DNA of 64,000 nucleotides from Escherichia phage saus132. The translations under genes and the position numbers were made by a program. Under the pieces are notes generated by a model that was not told the origin of the DNA, did no database searches, and saw only the letters and a program-made list of their open reading frames with translations. The stretch lies in sequence record NC_047884.1; one strand, written 5' to 3'. Below, piece after piece: positions 5,679 through 22,634 of the stretch; the first letter of the stretch is position 1; every line of letters starts with the position of its first letter.

Positions 5679-6173
5679 TTTATATTGAATTGAGAGACAT
5701 TAGTAAAAATTGATTTTGCTAATTTTTCTTGTTTACAATCCGCAATACGGAACAGTTAGGCTGCCCCATTAAGGGTTGTTTTAACTATTACTAGTGTTTA
5801 TACTGCATTAGTTAATTATCAATTAAGTGATCTGCGTACCCTGAATTCGGAAAGGTAAATCCAAACCGTGCATATTTAGCTCGTTATATAGGCAGAGCTT
5901 TATATGGGGGTGCGAACGAAAAGAGCAGCGAATGGTGACACGTCCAGTAGCCACCTACCAATAGGATAGTGAGGGCAATCAGAATCGGCTTAGCGGCCAA
6001 TGACCTAGGTTCTGATCTGGATAAGAGTTAAGAGAGCGCAGCACTGAGGTATGATAACTTATTCATACTGCTTGATGATGATTAATGTTTGTGTAAATGG
6101 TAGTAATAGTTGTTCTATTCTTTTGAATAGTCCTAAAGAAAGATATCCGAATAACCAACATAGGAGTATTGTT

Positions 6174-8963
6174 GTGTTCTCAATCCTACAAGGTCACGCA
6201 GGATTTTCCAGAGATAAAGCCACTGGCATCTGGAAAGAGATCAAAGTGGAAGACTACACCTTTGCAAAGCGATTCTCTAAAGAGCATCCAGAAGGTAAAC
6301 CAGCTTCCATGCCCTTCAAATTTGATGTACTTGAAGAACTTGACCCGCAAAACCTTGCTGAAATGTTACCTATCATGCGTCGTCTTACCAAAGACCCGCA
6401 TATTGTAGCTATTCGTGGTAAATGTTTAGCTCCAAAAGATAATGTGCGTCGTACCAGAGGAAACTTTAATGTATCCAATCCTAGTCATATTATTGCTATG
6501 GACGTGGATGGTATTGTAGATACTGGTGGCTATGACAAGTTTAATCTTGTCGGCATGGCACGTCATATTATTAAGATGTTGAATAGTATTAGTGAGGATA
6601 TGTTTCCTCTTGATGCAGGGTTTATTGCTCATGCATCGTCTTCGGCTGGCTTAAAACCAGGTATCCGAATGCACTTAATGCTAGAATCTAATGTCAAGGT
6701 AACGCAGGGGCAATTAAAATTCCTATTTACATCCATCAATGACAGTAGTAAGCAAAAGTATGGCTTTGATATTGCTGACTTAGCTTATTATTCTTCTGTT
6801 CAGCTTCACTATTTCGCAGATCCCTTATTTGATGATGGTATAGTCGATCCGTTTAAAGCGGAGAATAAACCACGTCTTGTGTATGTTAAGGGTTCGAAAG
6901 TGAATCTACCCAATAACCTAGTTGACTTTGAAACAACTAGAGGTGAGTTTAAAGAAGAATTCTACTCCTTACTTGACCAAATTAAAGGCAAGAAGGCTGC
7001 ATCTGATAAAGTGGAAGAAACCATCAGCGAACTAGAAGAAGCTGAGGATGGGGTGTACCTGCGTATTATCCCAAAACTTTATCACAGAGCGTTAGAAGAT
7101 GGTGTTGACTTTACGTGGTTAGAACGTGAGATTAAACCAGCTTTATCTGAGTATATTGCGACTAAAGATAATAGTCGTAATATTCAAGATTACTTTAATA
7201 ACGGTCGTAAGCAGGCTCTCAAAGCCTTTGTAAATAACTCCAAACGTGAGATTCCACCAAACTTAAAAGGTGTACCATTAAAACGTCTAGACACAGATTC
7301 TCCACCAGAAGTTCCATACCTGAAAATTAACATTGTACCACCAAAAGGACATTTAACATTTGTTAAGGCAAGTCTTGGTACGGGTAAAACTACAGCAGTA
7401 ACTAAGTGGCTAGATGCAGGTGTTCTTCCAGGGAACTTTATTGCAATCACAAATACTAGGGCACTTGTATCTTCTAACGCGAAGAAATTCGGTGCTGGCC
7501 AGTATGATAAGTCAGTTGATATGCTGAACTTCAAACGTGGTGCTATTGATCGTATGTCTTCAACTATTCACTCTATCCATAAGTTCAAGAGCTTTGTGGG
7601 TCAGATTGATACGATCTTTATTGATGAATGTGATGCAGTAATGAACGATCTGTTATTCGCTCCGGTTGTTAAAAACCGTCGTGAATGTATTCAGGTTCTT
7701 CGTGATATTCTTATTACTGCAAAAACGGTGATCTTATCTGATGGGGATATCAGTGCAGAAACGATTGAAGCCTATGGTTCTTTGATTGATTTTGATAAAC
7801 CGGTTGCGTTCTATAATCATCACCGTAAAATGCTGGCAAAAGCTCATGCTTATGAATTCCCTGACGAATCCAGTATTTGGGTTGCACTTCAAACATCTCT
7901 AGAGATGGGTGAGAAGTCAATCCTAGTATCTGACTGTGGACCAGATGAACTGAATGAAAAGGGAATGGCATTACGTCGTAATACGGGTGCGTTAGTTAAA
8001 GAAATTCACTCAAACTCTACGTCTGATGTAGATATCCGTCGTATTCTGGATTATACAACTAATGAGCTAATTGATCAACAGATTGATTGTTTGTTATGTA
8101 GTCCATCTGTAACGAGTGGTGTTGACTTTAACTATTTTGATAACGTATTCGTAATCACTAGAACCTCAAACCAAGCGCCAAACATGCGTTTTCAAGCAAT
8201 CAGGCGCGACCGTGGTGCTCAGAACATTTATTATTTTATTGATAAATCTACGAGTGGATTTTCTGCGGGTTCCGAGCAATATAATATTGACGAAGGTTGG
8301 ATTGAGTTAGCCCAACAACTGTACGCACGTCGCCGTGAGCTGGAATCTAGAAACTATACCAGTACTTTGCGTTATTATCTTCTCGATCAAGGTGCAACTA
8401 TCGATATTTTCAGCGAAAGCTGGGGAACTATCGAAGGTGCAGGCAAAGAGTATATAGAAGAGCGAATCAAAGCTATTTTGCACTCAACTCCTGAATATTG
8501 CGCACCACGTCATGCAGACGCCTATGAAGCCAAGTTACTTCTGGTTCGCTATTATCATCTGGATTCTATTAAAGATGTAATAGTGGAACACGTTGAACAG
8601 TATATTAAGGATAAACCAAACGATAGAGCTGCATTCTTCCATAAGATGCACGACATGTTCTGGGAAGATATTAAAAAGTGTTCAAACGTAACAATCAAAC
8701 CGTTTATCGAAGCTCTTAAGAATAAGAAGAAGGATTTCTTCCTTAAGACAGGTCAGAGCGCTAACCCAAAATATGCTCGTATGTATCTTGGCATGATGGG
8801 TATCGGTAAAGATCTGGATACGGAAAAGATTGTGGACTGGTACAGAACTTACTGTAAGATCGAATGTATGCCGATTCCAGTTAAGTTTATGACAGATGAA
8901 GAACGTCAGATGCATGAGGAAGCTCTTGCTGAATTGGGGGCTAGAAATGACAGCGAAGAATAA
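6174..8963 (+). CDS. Putative replication initiator / origin-binding-type helicase-like ATPase
   Basis: Walker A SLGTGKTT, Walker B FIDECD; start placed at GTG 6174 (RBS AGGAG 7 nt upstream) instead of track start 6051. Confidence 0.6.
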   Translation: MFSILQGHAGFSRDKATGIWKEIKVEDYTFAKRFSKEHPEGKPASMPFKFDVLEELDPQNLAEMLPIMRRLTKDPHIVAIRGKCLAPKDNVRRTRGNFNVSNPSHIIAMDVDGIVDTGGYDKFNLVGMARHIIKMLNSISEDMFPLDAGFIAHASSSAGLKPGIRMHLMLESNVKVTQGQLKFLFTSINDSSKQKYGFDIADLAYYSSVQLHYFADPLFDDGIVDPFKAENKPRLVYVKGSKVNLPNNLVDFETTRGEFKEEFYSLLDQIKGKKAASDKVEETISELEEAEDGVYLRIIPKLYHRALEDGVDFTWLEREIKPALSEYIATKDNSRNIQDYFNNGRKQALKAFVNNSKREIPPNLKGVPLKRLDTDSPPEVPYLKINIVPPKGHLTFVKASLGTGKTTAVTKWLDAGVLPGNFIAITNTRALVSSNAKKFGAGQYDKSVDMLNFKRGAIDRMSSTIHSIHKFKSFVGQIDTIFIDECDAVMNDLLFAPVVKNRRECIQVLRDILITAKTVILSDGDISAETIEAYGSLIDFDKPVAFYNHHRKMLAKAHAYEFPDESSIWVALQTSLEMGEKSILVSDCGPDELNEKGMALRRNTGALVKEIHSNSTSDVDIRRILDYTTNELIDQQIDCLLCSPSVTSGVDFNYFDNVFVITRTSNQAPNMRFQAIRRDRGAQNIYYFIDKSTSGFSAGSEQYNIDEGWIELAQQLYARRRELESRNYTSTLRYYLLDQGATIDIFSESWGTIEGAGKEYIEERIKAILHSTPEYCAPRHADAYEAKLLLVRYYHLDSIKDVIVEHVEQYIKDKPNDRAAFFHKMHDMFWEDIKKCSNVTIKPFIEALKNKKKDFFLKTGQSANPKYARMYLGMMGIGKDLDTEKIVDWYRTYCKIECMPIPVKFMTDEERQMHEEALAELGARNDSEE

Positions 8964-11768: not shown

Positions 11769-11963
11769 ATGGCAATAACACTTCCAAAGATTCAAGCAAA
11801 ACTTAATTTGCTCTCCATAGCAAGAATCAATTACCAGGATAGTATCGGCACTCCAAACCAGAAAGCGTACAAAGATGCGTGGTTGAAAGAAGCTGCTGAT
11901 TTAGCTGGTATGGCTGCGCAGTATAGTAAAGAACTCAAAATGGAAATCGCAGATGATGAATAA
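11769..11963 (+). CDS. Hypothetical small protein
   Basis: ORF abutting upstream stop. Confidence 0.45.
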   Translation: MAITLPKIQAKLNLLSIARINYQDSIGTPNQKAYKDAWLKEAADLAGMAAQYSKELKMEIADDE

Positions 11964-12927
11964 TGTAAAAGACTTTATTAAACGTTGTCAAGAAGCGTAC
12001 TACCAGGGAATGAGTCTTATTTCCGATGAAGAATATGATCGTCTGATTAAAAGATTCCCACTAGAGGAAGAAATCGGACCGAAAGGTGATATCCCTCATT
12101 TGTATCGTATGTATTCTTTGCAGAAAGTCTATTACGATCGTGGTGATAAAGCTCCATTCAACCCACTTGGTCAGGTTGAAACTGATAAGTTAGATGGTTG
12201 TGCGATTTCTCTATTATATATTAATGGTGAATTTATTCAAGCGTTAACTCGTGGTAACGGTATTCTAGGGAATGATGTAACGCATAATGTTAAAATGCTG
12301 AACATCCCTAAAACTATCTCCCAAAAAGTTCCAACTCAAATCACTGGTGAAGTTCTCATCACTAAAGAAGTAGAGAACAAACGTAACTATGCTTCCGGTG
12401 CTATTAACTTGAAAGATAGTGATGATTTCATGCAACGTATTGGTGAAGGTGGTTTAATCTTCGTTGCATATGGTATCCAGTGTTCAGCGGAAACAGTCGG
12501 TATTACAGAAGCCTATTTAAAAGATATGCTTTGGCTAGAGAATGAGAACTTCTTGACAGTTGTTAATGTTCGTTCCTTCTTTAAGTGGATTCCGACGGAT
12601 GGTAAAGTTGTTCGTATTAATGATAACAACAAATTCTTCCGTGAAGGTTGGACTAATAAATTTCCTCGCGGTGCATTTGCTATTAAAGAGGATGAAGAAG
12701 GCGAAATTACCACACTTGTTAAAGTTGAATGGCAAGTAGGGGCTTCTGGTAAAGTAACTCCAGTTGGTTATTTCGAACCGGTGATTATTGATGATGCCAC
12801 AATCGTTAAAGCAACTCTTAATAACGTTGATTATATTAACGCTCTCGATTTAGAGATCGGTTGCCAGATTCGAGTGATTCGTGCTGGTGGTGTAATCCCT
12901 TGTATAGTAGAGCGAGTATACGACTAA
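11953..12927 (+). CDS. NAD-dependent DNA ligase, N-terminal (adenylation) part of a split gene
   Basis: Adenylation motif KLDGCAISLLY (KxDG) in LigA-like context. Confidence 0.85.
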   Translation: MMNNVKDFIKRCQEAYYQGMSLISDEEYDRLIKRFPLEEEIGPKGDIPHLYRMYSLQKVYYDRGDKAPFNPLGQVETDKLDGCAISLLYINGEFIQALTRGNGILGNDVTHNVKMLNIPKTISQKVPTQITGEVLITKEVENKRNYASGAINLKDSDDFMQRIGEGGLIFVAYGIQCSAETVGITEAYLKDMLWLENENFLTVVNVRSFFKWIPTDGKVVRINDNNKFFREGWTNKFPRGAFAIKEDEEGEITTLVKVEWQVGASGKVTPVGYFEPVIIDDATIVKATLNNVDYINALDLEIGCQIRVIRAGGVIPCIVERVYD

Positions 12928-13129: not shown

Positions 13130-13909
13130 ATGAAAATCGAAATTCCAACACAATGTCCCTCTTGTGGTTCTAAGCTAGATCTTGTCAACGGGCAATTATT
13201 CTGTAGGAATAAGTCCAACTGTCCAGCACAATCAAGTAAGTTAATCGAGAACTTCTGCACAAAAATGAAGTTAAAGGGCTTTGGCCCGAAAACTATTGAG
13301 AAGCTGGAACTGACTAAGATCTCAGAACTGTTTTACCTGACCGAAGAAGATTTGGTCGGAGCTGTGGGTAGCAAGGTTGCCGCTAAGTTGATTAGCGAGT
13401 TAAATACTAAGGTTCGCGGAGACATTGACTTTGGTTCGGTTCTCGGTTCTTTAGGAATTCCTCTTATTGGAGAGGTTGCAGCAAAGAAACTGTCCCAAAA
13501 TTGCACTAGCTTCCACGATGTGAAGGCTGACGGCAAGGCTGGAGAAAATTACAAAACCTGGCTAAATTCCCCACAAGGCAAGGATGTTATTGAATTACCA
13601 TGGAAATTCTCAACTGGTATTCGAGGTACTAAAGCTGATATCATCATTACGGATGATTTAGTTGCCCAGCCAAATGGAATCACGATCTGTATTACCGGAT
13701 CTTTGCAAGATTTTGCAAATCGAACGGATGCAACAAACTATTTAGAAAGTCTAGGATATACGGTTAAGAAATCCGTTACCAAAGACGTCAAATACCTAAT
13801 CTGTGAGGATGAATCAAAACGTTCTTCCTCATCTTATAAGAAAGCCGAAACGAATGGGATAGAAATCCTGTCGATTAAAGAACTATTGGAGAAAAATAAT
13901 AATGTCTAA
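13130..13909 (+). CDS. NAD-dependent DNA ligase, C-terminal part (zinc finger, HhH, BRCT-like)
   Basis: CPSCGSKL...CRNKSNCPAQ Cys4 zinc finger; GIPLIGEVAAKKL HhH-like; C-terminal BRCT-like region. Confidence 0.85.
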   Translation: MKIEIPTQCPSCGSKLDLVNGQLFCRNKSNCPAQSSKLIENFCTKMKLKGFGPKTIEKLELTKISELFYLTEEDLVGAVGSKVAAKLISELNTKVRGDIDFGSVLGSLGIPLIGEVAAKKLSQNCTSFHDVKADGKAGENYKTWLNSPQGKDVIELPWKFSTGIRGTKADIIITDDLVAQPNGITICITGSLQDFANRTDATNYLESLGYTVKKSVTKDVKYLICEDESKRSSSSYKKAETNGIEILSIKELLEKNNNV

Positions 13910-19741: not shown

Positions 19742-20231
19742 TTTCAAATTGCCCGTATATGCTTTACGGGCGTTTGTATCAATTGAGCAGGAAGGTGATT
19801 ATTCCGTAATTACAACAAGATATAATAAATATGTGCTAGATAACAGGAAGTTGCCTGGCACATTCTCTCAACGTAGATTAGACCTATTCGAGAAGCGGAA
19901 AGAATTACCTTATAAGCTCTATCCTATTCGTGGTAGAATATCAATGTTGTCCCAATTAGTTGGGTCAAAGCGTAGCCAGTTCATAGATTCTGATGGAAAT
20001 CTTATTAATTGGAAGAAAACTACGTTCTATGATGTTATCACGTCTAAAGTTCTGCATTCTGCAAGAATTTATAATGGAAAGTATCAATGTTATGTGGCCA
20101 AAGTTCCATATCCATTCGTACTATCCTATGTTCCAGCTTATATAAGCTATATTCTGGTAAATAATAGCCCTGTTATTTACCAAGTCCATCAAGAGGAGCC
20201 TGAAATTCCTAGACTTAGAATAAAATTATGA
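19734..20231 (+). CDS. Hypothetical protein
   Basis: GTG start behind RBS AAAAGGA; AT-rich. Confidence 0.5.
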   Translation: MLDFKLPVYALRAFVSIEQEGDYSVITTRYNKYVLDNRKLPGTFSQRRLDLFEKRKELPYKLYPIRGRISMLSQLVGSKRSQFIDSDGNLINWKKTTFYDVITSKVLHSARIYNGKYQCYVAKVPYPFVLSYVPAYISYILVNNSPVIYQVHQEEPEIPRLRIKL

Positions 20232-21574
20232 AGGTTGTTATATCTAATAAAGCCTATTTCAAGCCCGATGATGAACTCTGGGATTACTGTAGTAAACAAA
20301 CTACTTATCACATCGAGACAATGACTAGTAAATACCCTATTATGTATAAGAATAGTGGTGTTGTTGCTAAAGAGATTAAGTGGATTCCCGTTACGCGTCT
20401 GGATTTACTAGAGGCTAAGGGAGTAAAATACGAATTAGTTGATAAACGCACGTTATCTCCGGTAGAAATACCAGAACCTCAGTTCAAGCTACGTGAAGAA
20501 GATCAGCTTCCTATATATGAAGAGTGTGATGATACTTGTATTATCAATGGTAAGCCTGGATTTGGTAAAACTATCTTAGCTCTAGCTCTTGCGTATAAGT
20601 TTGGTCAGAAAACTCTGGTAATCTGCACTAACACATCCATTCGTGAAATGTGGGCTGCAGAAGTTCGTAAATGGTTTGGGTTCGAGCCTGGTATTATAGG
20701 TTCTGGAAAGTATAATATTGATCCACCAATCGTGGTCAGTAATATACAAACAGTGAACAAACATGCGAATAATCTTTCTAAGGTATTCGGTACTGTTATA
20801 GTTGATGAAGTTCACCACTGTGTAGCTACAACTTTCACTAATTTCCTAGAGATCTCATGTGCTCGCTACAAGATCGGTCTATCAGGTACATTAAAACGTA
20901 AAGATGGGCTACAAGTTATGTTCAAAGATTTCTTTGGATATAAGATCTTTAGTCCCCCTGTTAATAACACTGTTCCACCCACAATCCATAGGTACTCCGT
21001 ACCTGTCGAGTTATCAGGAAACCAGAACGTACCGTGGGCACTACGTGCTAATGATGTATATAATCATCCTGAATATCGGGAAACTATTATAAACCTAGCA
21101 CATTTATATGTGTCTATGGGGCATAAGGTTCTCTTTGTAAGTGATAGGACGGAACTAATCCAAACAATATTAGAAGCTCTCGCACAACGTGGTGTTACAA
21201 CCTATGAGATTATAGGTGCAACTCCTTTGGATGACCGATTGAGAATCCAGAAAGATGTAGCGGAGGGCGGACCCTGTGTGCTTGCAGCAGCTCAGAGTAT
21301 CTTCTCAGAAGGTATTTCTCTTAACGAGCTGTCTTGTTTAATAATGGGAAGTCTCATTAATAATGAATCTCTCATAGAACAGTTAGCAGGCCGCGTTCAA
21401 CGTATTGTTGACGGAAAGTTAGATCCGATTGTTGTAGATTTAATTATGAAAGGAGGTACTGGTTTAAGACAGGCTTCTGGACGTATGGCCGTGTATCGCA
21501 ATAATGCATGGAAAACTATTACTATGACTCCGGAGAAAGCAGTTAGATTAGCCCAGGAAGTATTTAAGGCATAA
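20228..21574 (+). CDS. SF2 DNA helicase (T5 D10-like)
   Basis: Walker A GKPGFGKT, DEAH-type box VIVDEVHH; position after polymerase as for T5 D10. Confidence 0.8.
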   Translation: MKVVISNKAYFKPDDELWDYCSKQTTYHIETMTSKYPIMYKNSGVVAKEIKWIPVTRLDLLEAKGVKYELVDKRTLSPVEIPEPQFKLREEDQLPIYEECDDTCIINGKPGFGKTILALALAYKFGQKTLVICTNTSIREMWAAEVRKWFGFEPGIIGSGKYNIDPPIVVSNIQTVNKHANNLSKVFGTVIVDEVHHCVATTFTNFLEISCARYKIGLSGTLKRKDGLQVMFKDFFGYKIFSPPVNNTVPPTIHRYSVPVELSGNQNVPWALRANDVYNHPEYRETIINLAHLYVSMGHKVLFVSDRTELIQTILEALAQRGVTTYEIIGATPLDDRLRIQKDVAEGGPCVLAAAQSIFSEGISLNELSCLIMGSLINNESLIEQLAGRVQRIVDGKLDPIVVDLIMKGGTGLRQASGRMAVYRNNAWKTITMTPEKAVRLAQEVFKA

Positions 21575-21575
21575 A

Positions 21576-22106
21576 ATGATAACACAAGATAAGCTCAAAG
21601 AACTTTTCGAGTATAACCCAGATACAGGTGATTTTACTCGTAGAGTAGCTAAAGGTAGAGCTGCAAAAGGAAGTATTGCTGGATCTCGTAACTCTAATGG
21701 TTATGTCTATATAAAAATAGATAAAATATCTTATCCTGCACATAGGCTTGCCTTCCTATACGTGGAAGGCAGGCTTCCTGAAGAGATAGACCATATTAAT
21801 CGTATAAGATGGGATAATAGGTGGAATAACTTGCGAGAGACCACACATCAACAAAACTGCAGAAATAGAAACACTAGAAGTACTTCTGGATATTTAGGCG
21901 TACATTGGGATAATAATTCTTCTAAATGGAAGGTAGAGATAACTAACTGTATAGGTGTTAAAATATACGGTGGGTTATTCCCTTATGAGGAATTAGAGTT
22001 AGCTATAGATAAAGCTAATGAACTTAGAGCACAGCATCTAGGCATGGATTCCAGACAAGAACTATTCAAAGGATATATTTGTCGACGTGAGGACTTAGAT
22101 AAGTAA
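21576..22106 (+). CDS. HNH homing endonuclease with AP2-type DNA-binding domain
   Basis: EIDHINRIRWDNRWNNLRETTHQQN (HNH_3-like) then SGYLGVHWDNNSSKWKVEI (AP2-like). Confidence 0.75.
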   Translation: MITQDKLKELFEYNPDTGDFTRRVAKGRAAKGSIAGSRNSNGYVYIKIDKISYPAHRLAFLYVEGRLPEEIDHINRIRWDNRWNNLRETTHQQNCRNRNTRSTSGYLGVHWDNNSSKWKVEITNCIGVKIYGGLFPYEELELAIDKANELRAQHLGMDSRQELFKGYICRREDLDK

Positions 22107-22114
22107 AATTGCAT

Positions 22115-22143
22115 TTGGCAACTGCTCATAATTATTGTATAAT
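22115..22143 (+). promoter_or_regulatory. Early promoter (first of a tandem pair)
   Basis: TTGGCA, 17 bp spacer, TGTATAAT, then ATACACATAAATTTGAGAGAGAAAG. Confidence 0.45.
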
Positions 22144-22214
22144 ATACACATAAATTTGAGAGAGAAAGTTTCGGATTGATAAGAAAGTCCGAAGCAGAAA
22201 AATAAAAATTGTAC

Positions 22215-22244
22215 TTGTCAAATCCTCCCGATTTAATGTATAAT
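22215..22244 (+). promoter_or_regulatory. Early promoter (second of a tandem pair)
   Basis: TTGTCA, 18 bp spacer, TGTATAAT, then ATATACATAAATTGATGAGAGA. Confidence 0.45.
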
Positions 22245-22271
22245 ATATACATAAATTGATGAGAGACAAAA

Positions 22272-22634
22272 ATGAAATTCTTTGATTACGAGAGAATTTA
22301 CCTCTTAGCTAGAGGAAACTCCGACCTGATTGTCAAGCTATTTAATAGAATGCTTGCAGAGCCTGATGCTCACCAGTTACTGGTCGGTTCTTCATTCATC
22401 TTGAATGAATCAACTATTGTTGATAACCCTTACAAATTGTCTAATAGACAACTGGCAGAATATCTAGGAATTCTAAGTCTACGAAATTATGCCGAATATA
22501 AGTTTACAAACGATCCGAGTTTGGACATGCAATATGTCCCCATATGGATACCACGTTCTGTAATCGACACTAACCCACTAATTGCAATCAATAAATCGAA
22601 GATAATCTTTAAAGAGGAAATAAAATATGGCTAA
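22272..22634 (+). CDS. Hypothetical protein
   Basis: ORF downstream of tandem promoters. Confidence 0.55.
   Translation: MKFFDYERIYLLARGNSDLIVKLFNRMLAEPDAHQLLVGSSFILNESTIVDNPYKLSNRQLAEYLGILSLRNYAEYKFTNDPSLDMQYVPIWIPRSVIDTNPLIAINKSKIIFKEEIKYG

Follow-up and report, generated by a model that had tools for sequence, protein, structure and literature searches.

Results

An endonuclease ORF abuts the helicase gene

The window analyzed here (the whole stretch of 64 kb, numbered from its first letter) corresponds to the last 64 kb of GenBank record MF431736, which is classified as Epseptimavirus, Demerecviridae. In a part of it that the MF431736 annotation identifies as an early replication/recombination module, a gene for an ATP-dependent DNA helicase is followed by an endonuclease ORF and by a conserved early ORF (Table 1). 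The helicase matches Pfam ResIII (E = 1e-19) and Helicase_C (E = 5e-9), as well as PHROG 16, "DNA helicase" (E = 8e-72). The endonuclease ATG lies two positions past the last base of the helicase stop codon at 21572-21574, with a single A as spacer, just as a preliminary description of this DNA had placed it, and a ribosome-binding site is annotated at the equivalent position in the record of phage Sw2. The ORF is already labeled "homing endonuclease" in MF431736 (ASU02488.1), and the segment 20000-23500 is 100% identical to five genomes named "Bacteriophage T5-like" (chee130_1, poul149, chee158, cott162, and saus176N). A search for paralogs of the endonuclease family elsewhere in the 64-kb window found none, leaving this ORF as the sole member there, and an Rfam scan of positions 21400-22400 returned nothing.

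Table 1. Features at the helicase-endonuclease junction (window coordinates)
Feature	Coordinates	Strand	Remarks
D10-type ATP-dependent DNA helicase	20228..21574	+	448 aa; recipient of the cassette at its 3' end
Two substitutions, AG for CA (Arg for Gln)	21545..21546	+	Found with the cassette in every carrier examined
Inserted cassette	21553..22103	+	551 bp; bounds from empty sites, ATTAGC^TAAAATTGC (caret, insertion point)
Substitute helicase tail, QEVFKA plus stop	21554..21574	+	Cassette-borne; replaces KIAFGNCS plus stop; aligned to SB6 and T5_ev219
AAGG, Shine-Dalgarno-like motif	21566..21569	+	6 nt 5' of the endonuclease ATG, within the substitute helicase tail
HNH-AP2 endonuclease ORF	21576..22106	+	ATG start, 176 aa, stop TAA at 22104-22106
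HNH_3 (I-HmuI-type His-Me finger) catalytic core	21732..21857	+	aa 53-94; D72-H73, N85, N94
AP2-type DNA-binding domain	21885..22040	+	aa 104-155; from predicted fold and family profile
3' part of the ORF (141 nt) shared with the variant cassette	21966..22106	+	94-95% identical to the variant cassette
Untranslated relic of the ancestral helicase 3' end	22104..22131	+	Identical to the SB6 helicase coding end
Promoter-like site TTGGCA-17-TATAAT	22115..22143	+	Consensus scan, 11/12 matches; conserved across 28 empty loci
Conserved early ORF phrog_4258, right-hand neighbor	22272..22634	+	120 aa; annotated in relatives, absent from the MF431736 annotation

The protein has an I-HmuI-type HNH core

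The 176-residue protein matches Pfam HNH_3 (PF13392) over residues 53-94 with E = 1.1e-14 and 54.2 bits against a cut-off of 24.8, and PHROG 99, "HNH endonuclease," with E = 8e-60; a chance match to HNH_3 would be far too improbable to explain a score of this size. We collected 117 homologs and aligned 65 of them with the query. In the resulting 66-sequence alignment (A3), HNH_3 is matched by all 66 sequences, none of which departs from H73, N85, or N94; at D72, N75, D80, and N81, conservation is 90% or higher. When the A3 profile is compared with the sequences in the PDB, I-HmuI (1u3e) is found at E = 7e-9 with the DH...N...N motif aligned, profile positions 29-112 being paired with I-HmuI residues 23-107. 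An AlphaFold2 model built on the same alignment (mean pLDDT 93.1, and about 90-97 in the AP2 region) contains a predicted HNH beta-beta-alpha element, with strands at 70-73 and 86-89 and then a helix at 91-96. Foldseek matches to the PDB obtained with this model include neither I-HmuI nor any other HNH structure, so the HNH assignment rests on sequence profiles. An NCBIfam search with the endonuclease gave no match, and the PDB searched with this one sequence yielded nothing above noise. The HNH catalytic motif proposed in the preliminary description is therefore well founded, the Pfam, PHROG, and I-HmuI profile matches all being significant and the three catalytic positions being invariant in the 66 aligned sequences. 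An HNH protein of the terminase-associated (HK97-like) type was also considered and is ruled out by the location of the gene in the early replication module, by the match to HNH_3 and not to PF01844, and by the AP2 domain.

An AP2-type domain is predicted C-terminal to the HNH core

The same description had paired the nuclease with an AP2-type DNA-binding domain; here the family profile and the predicted fold agree with it but a direct Pfam match does not, so the domain is not demonstrable from the single sequence. With the full 176-residue protein as query, no AP2 (PF00847) match is listed at E ≤ 0.1; when the search is confined to the C-terminal 73 residues, the match has E = 0.08 and 13.7 bits, below the cut-off of 33.3. 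Within the alignment, PF00847 is matched at E ≤ 1e-3 by 31 of the 66 homologs, at residues ∼105-163, which align with query residues 104-155, and one of these proteins (P0021) exceeds the curated cut-off with 36.2 bits. Compared with PDB sequences, the A3 profile finds the AP2 domains of WRI1 (E = 6.8e-10) and TEM1 (E = 6e-5).

In the AlphaFold2 model, strands at 109-112, 117-123, and 129-135 and a long helix at 137-155 make up the three-stranded antiparallel sheet packed on one helix by which the AP2 fold is recognized. The top Foldseek matches in the PDB are AP2 proteins, namely, WRI1 (7wq5), ERF96 (5wx9), and AtERF1 (1gcc), the last with a TM score of 0.76 normalized to the target, an rmsd of 2.6 Å, and a probability of 1.0. 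A viral structure library gave 219 fold matches at E ≤ 1e-3, many of them named as phage HNH homing endonucleases or AP2/ERF proteins. Sequence profiles and the predicted model together support an architecture in which an I-HmuI-type HNH core is followed by a C-terminal AP2 domain. In the HMM search that had been proposed as a check of the preliminary description, HNH_3 is significant directly, and AP2 is reached via the family alignment and the PDB profile search.

The cassette replaces the end of the helicase

In cassette-free relatives the helicase is 450 residues long and ends in ...EKAVQLAKIAFGNCS before the stop codon, with a tail that reads QLAKIAFGNCS (QLAKIAFGNSS in T5_ev219). The empty site has the sequence ...GAG AAA GCA GT(A/T) CAA TTA GC^T AAA ATT GCA TTT GGC AAC (T/A)GC TCA TAA, and in SB6 or T5 the helicase end reads ...GCAGTACAATTAGCTAAAATTGCATTTGGCAAC... 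The distance between the anchors on either side of this junction is 559 nt in the window versus 8 nt in 28 loci called empty, and the alignment gap opens at 21553 in six carrier/empty pairs. At its 5' end the insert reads C CAG GAA GTA TTT AAG GCA TAA, with the result that the 448-residue helicase ends in RLAQEVFKA. Its 3' end is the final sense codon of the endonuclease; where the ancestral sequence resumes, its first bases furnish the stop codon TAA. This resumed sequence, T AAA ATT GCA TTT GGC AAC TGC TCA TAA, is the relic listed in Table 1, and the survival of the ancestral helicase end in this form 3' of the insert shows the empty site to be the ancestral state.

The preliminary description had located the ORF between the helicase and downstream early genes. 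Its neighbors are as described, but the location is not simply intergenic, since the insertion falls in the final 11 codons of the helicase gene, the tail of which is replaced by the cassette. The two substitutions just upstream of the insertion, at 21545-21546, are either part of the transferred segment or a form of target-site protection; the T at 21544 is also found in empty Tequintavirus sites. Among the 28 loci called empty, conservation is highest in a stretch of ∼120 nt that begins at the insertion point, with a major-allele frequency of 0.98-0.995 there versus 0.93-0.97 nearby. The insertion with its substitute helicase tail is not described in the papers that we found, and in this respect it is a small addition to what is known.

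Downstream of the insert, the best-scoring promoter-like site in the region (Table 1) has its candidate -35 element, TTGGCA at 22115-22120, within the relic, the cassette ending 12 nt upstream of it, and a second promoter-like site of equal strength is present at 22215-22244. The consensus scan finds no site of comparable strength directly upstream of the endonuclease, from which we infer that it is co-transcribed with the helicase.

The gene is optional at this site

About 440 phage records have the helicase at ≥80% identity, but only about 60 have the endonuclease ORF full-length and at ≥90% identity; the other 125 endonuclease matches are paralogs of 60-80% identity, and those inspected are at other loci. 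An 80-nt probe across the SB6 empty junction matches 439 records, in which the site is uninterrupted and empty in 370, filled by this gene in about 60, and filled by a variant of it in 9 (these counts include RefSeq/GenBank duplicates on both the carrier and the empty side). Carriers of the gene thus make up roughly one-seventh of the junction-bearing records. Among 28 T5-like loci in IMG/VR, 26 are empty, 2 have the variant, and none has the cassette of the window type. The presence/absence check at the junction agrees with the earlier view that the ORF is optional. All seven carriers that we fetched have identical boundaries and the same architecture, and the six with a taxonomy line are Epseptimavirus.

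Carriers and empty sites are interleaved

Carriers are interleaved with empties in a neighbor-joining tree built from nucleotides 1-1290 of the helicase gene. The clearest pair is the carrier MET_P1_137_112 (L038), the helicase of which is 100% identical over 1290 nt to that of an empty relative (L031) and 99.9% identical to that of empty SB6; in the ∼1.9 kb upstream of the insert, L038 and L031 differ at 21544-21546 and by one mismatch at 20180. Compared in 100-nt bins with the empty SB6 and L030, the window shows 94-100% identity over ∼4 kb upstream and 2.5 kb downstream of the insert, with 99-100% in the nearest ∼0.8 kb upstream and in most of the downstream part. In the diverged background of vB_SenS-AKM_ECS (L033), the stretch 21500-22199, including the cassette, is 94-100% identical to the window, versus 85-92% in the helicase flank and 74% in the 22200 bin; this is an island of identity consisting of the cassette plus at most ∼100 bp per side.

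The suggestion that the ORF is a mobile insertion accordingly gains from three sides: the interleaving in the helicase tree, the identical helicases of L038 and L031, and the L033 island. Sporadic presence at one precise site in genomes that are collinear elsewhere, and incongruence with the phylogeny together with transfer on short flanking tracts, by which free-standing homing endonuclease genes (HEGs) are recognized, are all apparent here at the level of sequence comparison. Patchy distribution and identity islands could in principle also arise by ordinary homologous recombination in co-infection, without an endonuclease.

A diverged cassette occupies the same site

The variant cassette sits at the same site in nine records (e.g., SHSML-45, Shivani, H8, and bobsandoy) and is ≥99.2% identical across them. 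It encodes a protein of 177 residues (P0002) that is 63% identical to the window protein, and in two of the loci (L005 and L006) it brings a similar substitute helicase tail, RLAQEIFKT followed by a stop, with further synonymous changes reaching upstream. The helicases of SHSML-45 and H8, both of which carry the variant, are 4.7% apart. Over the first 390 nt of the ORF, the variant and window genes are only ∼58-64% identical, in contrast to the high identity of the 3' 141 nt (Table 1), which marks a recombination breakpoint inside the gene. In terms of the predicted domains, the two alleles share the AP2 helix and the C-terminal tail and differ in the AP2 sheet and the nuclease. H8 (L006) combines a Tequintavirus-like left flank with a right flank that matches the window at 97-100% identity over ∼0.9 kb, which places the variant cassette at a recombination boundary; such boundaries at phage nuclease genes have been described in general terms (PMC10448857).

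The endonuclease is under purifying selection

Across eight carriers, the endonuclease has a dN/dS of 0.069 (Nei-Gojobori), compared with 0.025 for the helicase, 0.061 for the 165-aa ORF, 0.084 for the 120-aa ORF, and 0.124 for SSB. Purifying selection on the endonuclease is thus as strong as on its core neighbors, which fits an active enzyme and would also fit a domesticated function. In the preliminary description, universal presence together with strong, core-like purifying selection had been named as the outcome that would speak against a mobile insertion. One half of this is seen and the other is not: the ORF is far from universal, yet where it is present it is constrained as the core genes are. 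Purifying selection among the carriers does not contradict mobility. The window copy and six of the other seven carrier copies that we translated retain H73, N85, and N94, the exception being phage bux with N85S. In the beppo copy, a 2-nt insertion (a +2 frameshift) splits the ORF just before the DH motif, reflecting either decay or a sequencing error.

Discussion

A probable mobile homing endonuclease gene in an essential helicase gene

The reading that we favor, at a probability of roughly 85%, is that the locus holds a free-standing homing endonuclease gene of the HNH_3/I-HmuI type, with an AP2 domain, which as a 551-bp cassette has entered the D10 helicase gene of a T5-like phage (Epseptimavirus) at its 3' end. 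It rests on sequence comparison and on the predicted model, and it bears out, in all four of its elements, the earlier view of a typical free-standing homing endonuclease, with AP2 supported by means other than a direct Pfam match.

The endonuclease gene, probably lacking a strong promoter, would be translated from the helicase transcript by way of the Shine-Dalgarno-like motif in the substitute tail. When an empty-site phage infects the same cell, the AP2 domain would bind the conserved sequence at the helicase end and promoter, probably joined in this by the N-terminal beta-rich region, and a nick or cut would then be made near ATTAGC^TAAAATTGC by the single HNH site. Our guess, by analogy, is nicking and not double-strand cleavage, because the protein has a single HNH site and I-HmuI, a monomer, nicks one strand. 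Through recombinational repair from the carrier genome, the recipient would then acquire the cassette together with short flanks. In the carrier allele itself, the site is split by the insertion and the adjacent codons are altered (CA to AG at 21545-21546), in addition to the new tail, and these changes would make it immune. With the helicase C terminus restored and the downstream promoter intact, the insertion would cost the phage little. The recognition and repair steps of this scheme are modeled on the family, that is, on I-HmuI and on the Seg and Mob enzymes of T4 (PMC5714182, PMC2330249).

Alternative explanations

The same gene might instead be a domesticated nuclease, kept because it benefits the phage (by excluding competitors, by making specific nicks, or by serving recombination-dependent replication near the helicase, SSB, and SbcCD genes) and not because it homes. 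A dN/dS as low as that of neighboring core genes and a location in the replication/recombination module would both be expected on such a view, and T5-like genomes carry specific nicks (PMC10644984). However, the gene is missing from ∼84% of the related phages, T5-type genomes included, which means that the life cycle can be completed without the endonuclease; the distribution of the gene departs from the helicase tree, with the L033 island as a case in point; one carrier copy is frameshifted; and purifying selection is equally expected of a HEG that is still spreading. We consider domestication unlikely on these grounds. An optional accessory gene shuffled by general homologous recombination alone, whether as an ancestral polymorphism or as a passive cassette, would account for the mosaicism seen throughout the region, given that the flanks of T5-like phages are so similar that any segment can move. 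It would leave unexplained why the catalytic residues are conserved under purifying selection, why the tract transferred in L033 is tightly centered on the cassette (at most about 100 bp on each side), and why two diverged alleles occupy exactly one site, and the characterized member of the family, I-HmuI, is a homing endonuclease (PMC5714182); this makes passive shuffling very unlikely.

A role in regulation has two forms. The HEG could be catalytically retired, the main function of its product now being to regulate the adjacent promoter through AP2-type DNA binding, and the position of the cassette 12 nt upstream of the -35 element of a strong promoter-like site, where half of the presumed target remains, lends itself to this idea, as does the precedent of I-TevI, a HEG product that doubles as a repressor, to which PMC10448857 refers. 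With the three catalytic residues intact in the window and in nearly all of the other translated carriers (6/7), and with purifying selection that spans the whole ORF and not the AP2 part alone, we regard retirement as extremely improbable. Somewhat less remote, though still doubtful, is a dual role as nuclease and regulator after the manner of I-TevI, in which the AP2 domain would bind the leftover half-target and tune the downstream SSB and recombination genes, the two alleles representing competing specificities. If this were true, the cassette would be more than a passenger, set as it is in frame in an essential helicase with its own tail, stop, and ribosome-binding site.

Significance

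As a homing endonuclease gene of this kind, the feature is an ordinary member of a well-described class and is already annotated in GenBank. What the locus offers is a clean natural example, with near-identical genomes that differ by the presence of the cassette, an exact insertion point in an essential gene, a self-supplied tail, and a second allele. For T5-like phages, a group with few assayed endonucleases of this kind, it would be a convenient system in which to measure homing and co-conversion, and it marks a site in Epseptimavirus that tolerates cargo, evidently without harm to the helicase or to the downstream promoter.

Relation to known homing endonucleases

The gene for I-HmuI, an enzyme of Bacillus phage SPO1, lies in a group I intron, and its product carries C-terminal DNA-binding modules of other kinds, whereas the window protein is free-standing and has an AP2 domain; both are single-HNH enzymes. 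The HNH_3 nuclease core that they have in common belongs to His-Me finger group 2 (PMC5714182). HNH-AP2 homing endonucleases of phages, cyanobacteria, and protists are on record (Magnani 2004, as cited in PMC10448857 and PMC5714182). In the HNH-AP2 HEGs and the "IPA-HNH" group of Barth et al. 2023, an N-terminal HNH and a C-terminal AP2 domain are found beside essential phage genes (PMC10448857), as they are here. The IPA-HNH proteins are, however, by definition too divergent for Pfam HNH_3 (PMC10448857), and the direct HNH_3 match of the window protein places it in the canonical HNH_3-AP2 set and not among them.

The free-standing HEGs of T4 (Seg and Mob, e.g., SegB) likewise lie between or beside conserved genes, and their expression, like that proposed for the window gene, depends on neighboring transcription. 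In mixed infections they are inherited preferentially, with co-conversion of their flanks (PMC2330249). They differ in their domains, the Seg enzymes being GIY-YIG proteins and the DNA-binding domains of Mob being of the zinc-finger type, versus AP2 here (PMC10448857).

Closer to the present gene are hegE and the F-Tfl genes of T5 and BF23, which come from the same phage group and belong to the same free-standing HNH class. One account of T5-like genomes names HEGs as the main source of the differences among them (PMC10644984). The F-Tfl genes are located in the tRNA region (PMC2330249), in contrast to the window gene at the helicase end. The closest named relative is BF23 hegE (P0005), with 55% identity over 92% of the query, and in BF23 it lies between a hypothetical gene and rnh. 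The ortholog of the window gene in OQ383621 is labeled "F-TflV/hegE," and we considered whether it might be the characterized T5 enzyme; hegE is a paralog (∼55% identity) at another locus, from which we conclude that the label was transferred by similarity and reflects neither position nor assay.

The endonuclease and its surroundings

The N-terminal region of the endonuclease (residues 1–54) is predicted with confidence as four short strands, followed by a helix at residues 55–64, and in the Foldseek search WRI1, a protein with two AP2 domains, aligned along the entire model (182 columns). Because of this strand-to-helix arrangement and the full-length WRI1 alignment, the N terminus may form a putative second small sheet-plus-helix DNA-binding module. 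In Salmonella phage beppo, a 2-nt insertion directly 5' of the DH catalytic motif splits the orthologue into two annotated CDS; the gene may be decaying in this phage, or the insertion may be an error of sequencing.

The D11–D12 junction, ~1.3 kb downstream, looks like a further insertion site that has been filled: in Shigella phage SHSML-45, and in the corresponding region of phage H8, a 176-aa ORF with an HNH-like motif (VDHKD...NNRWSNLR) lies between the genes for SSB (D11) and D12, and this ORF is absent from the window. On inspection by eye, a C-terminal stretch of it looks AP2-like.

In the intergenic region 3' of the endonuclease, a promoter with its leader occurs twice in near-identical form. 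The fold of window 22144–22271, the segment that contains the very stable hairpin lying between the promoter-like copies, has a z-score of −4.85, and conservation across 28 T5-like loci peaks in the stretch through, and including, this hairpin. An Rfam scan of window 21400–22400 gave zero matches for the intergenic region. Promoter-like copy 1 and the hairpin may belong to a leader, a small RNA, or a tiny ORF.

In MF431736, the deposited phage chee130_1 record, the DNA ligase is annotated as two CDS separated by ~200 nt; this may be the split ligase of T5, or the gap may mark another insertion or disruption site. The same record lacks annotation for two conserved ORFs (165 and 120 aa), both annotated in relatives.

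Coordinates of the features discussed (window positions unless a phage locus is named)
Feature	Position	Remark
DNA ligase, two CDS	11956–12927 and 13130–13909	MF431736 annotation
Conserved ORF, 165 aa	19734–20231	phrog_4386, E 1e-83
Endonuclease N-terminal region, aa 1–54	21576–21737	predicted model
Intergenic region	22107–22271	downstream of endonuclease
Promoter-like copy 1	22115–22143	11/12 consensus matches
Hairpin	22168–22195	
Promoter-like copy 2	22215–22244	11/12 consensus matches
Conserved ORF, 120 aa	22272–22634	phrog_4258, E 1e-62
Disrupted endonuclease orthologue	1877–2409 (L040, beppo)	two annotated CDS
Extra 176-aa ORF	5716–6246 (L005, SHSML-45)
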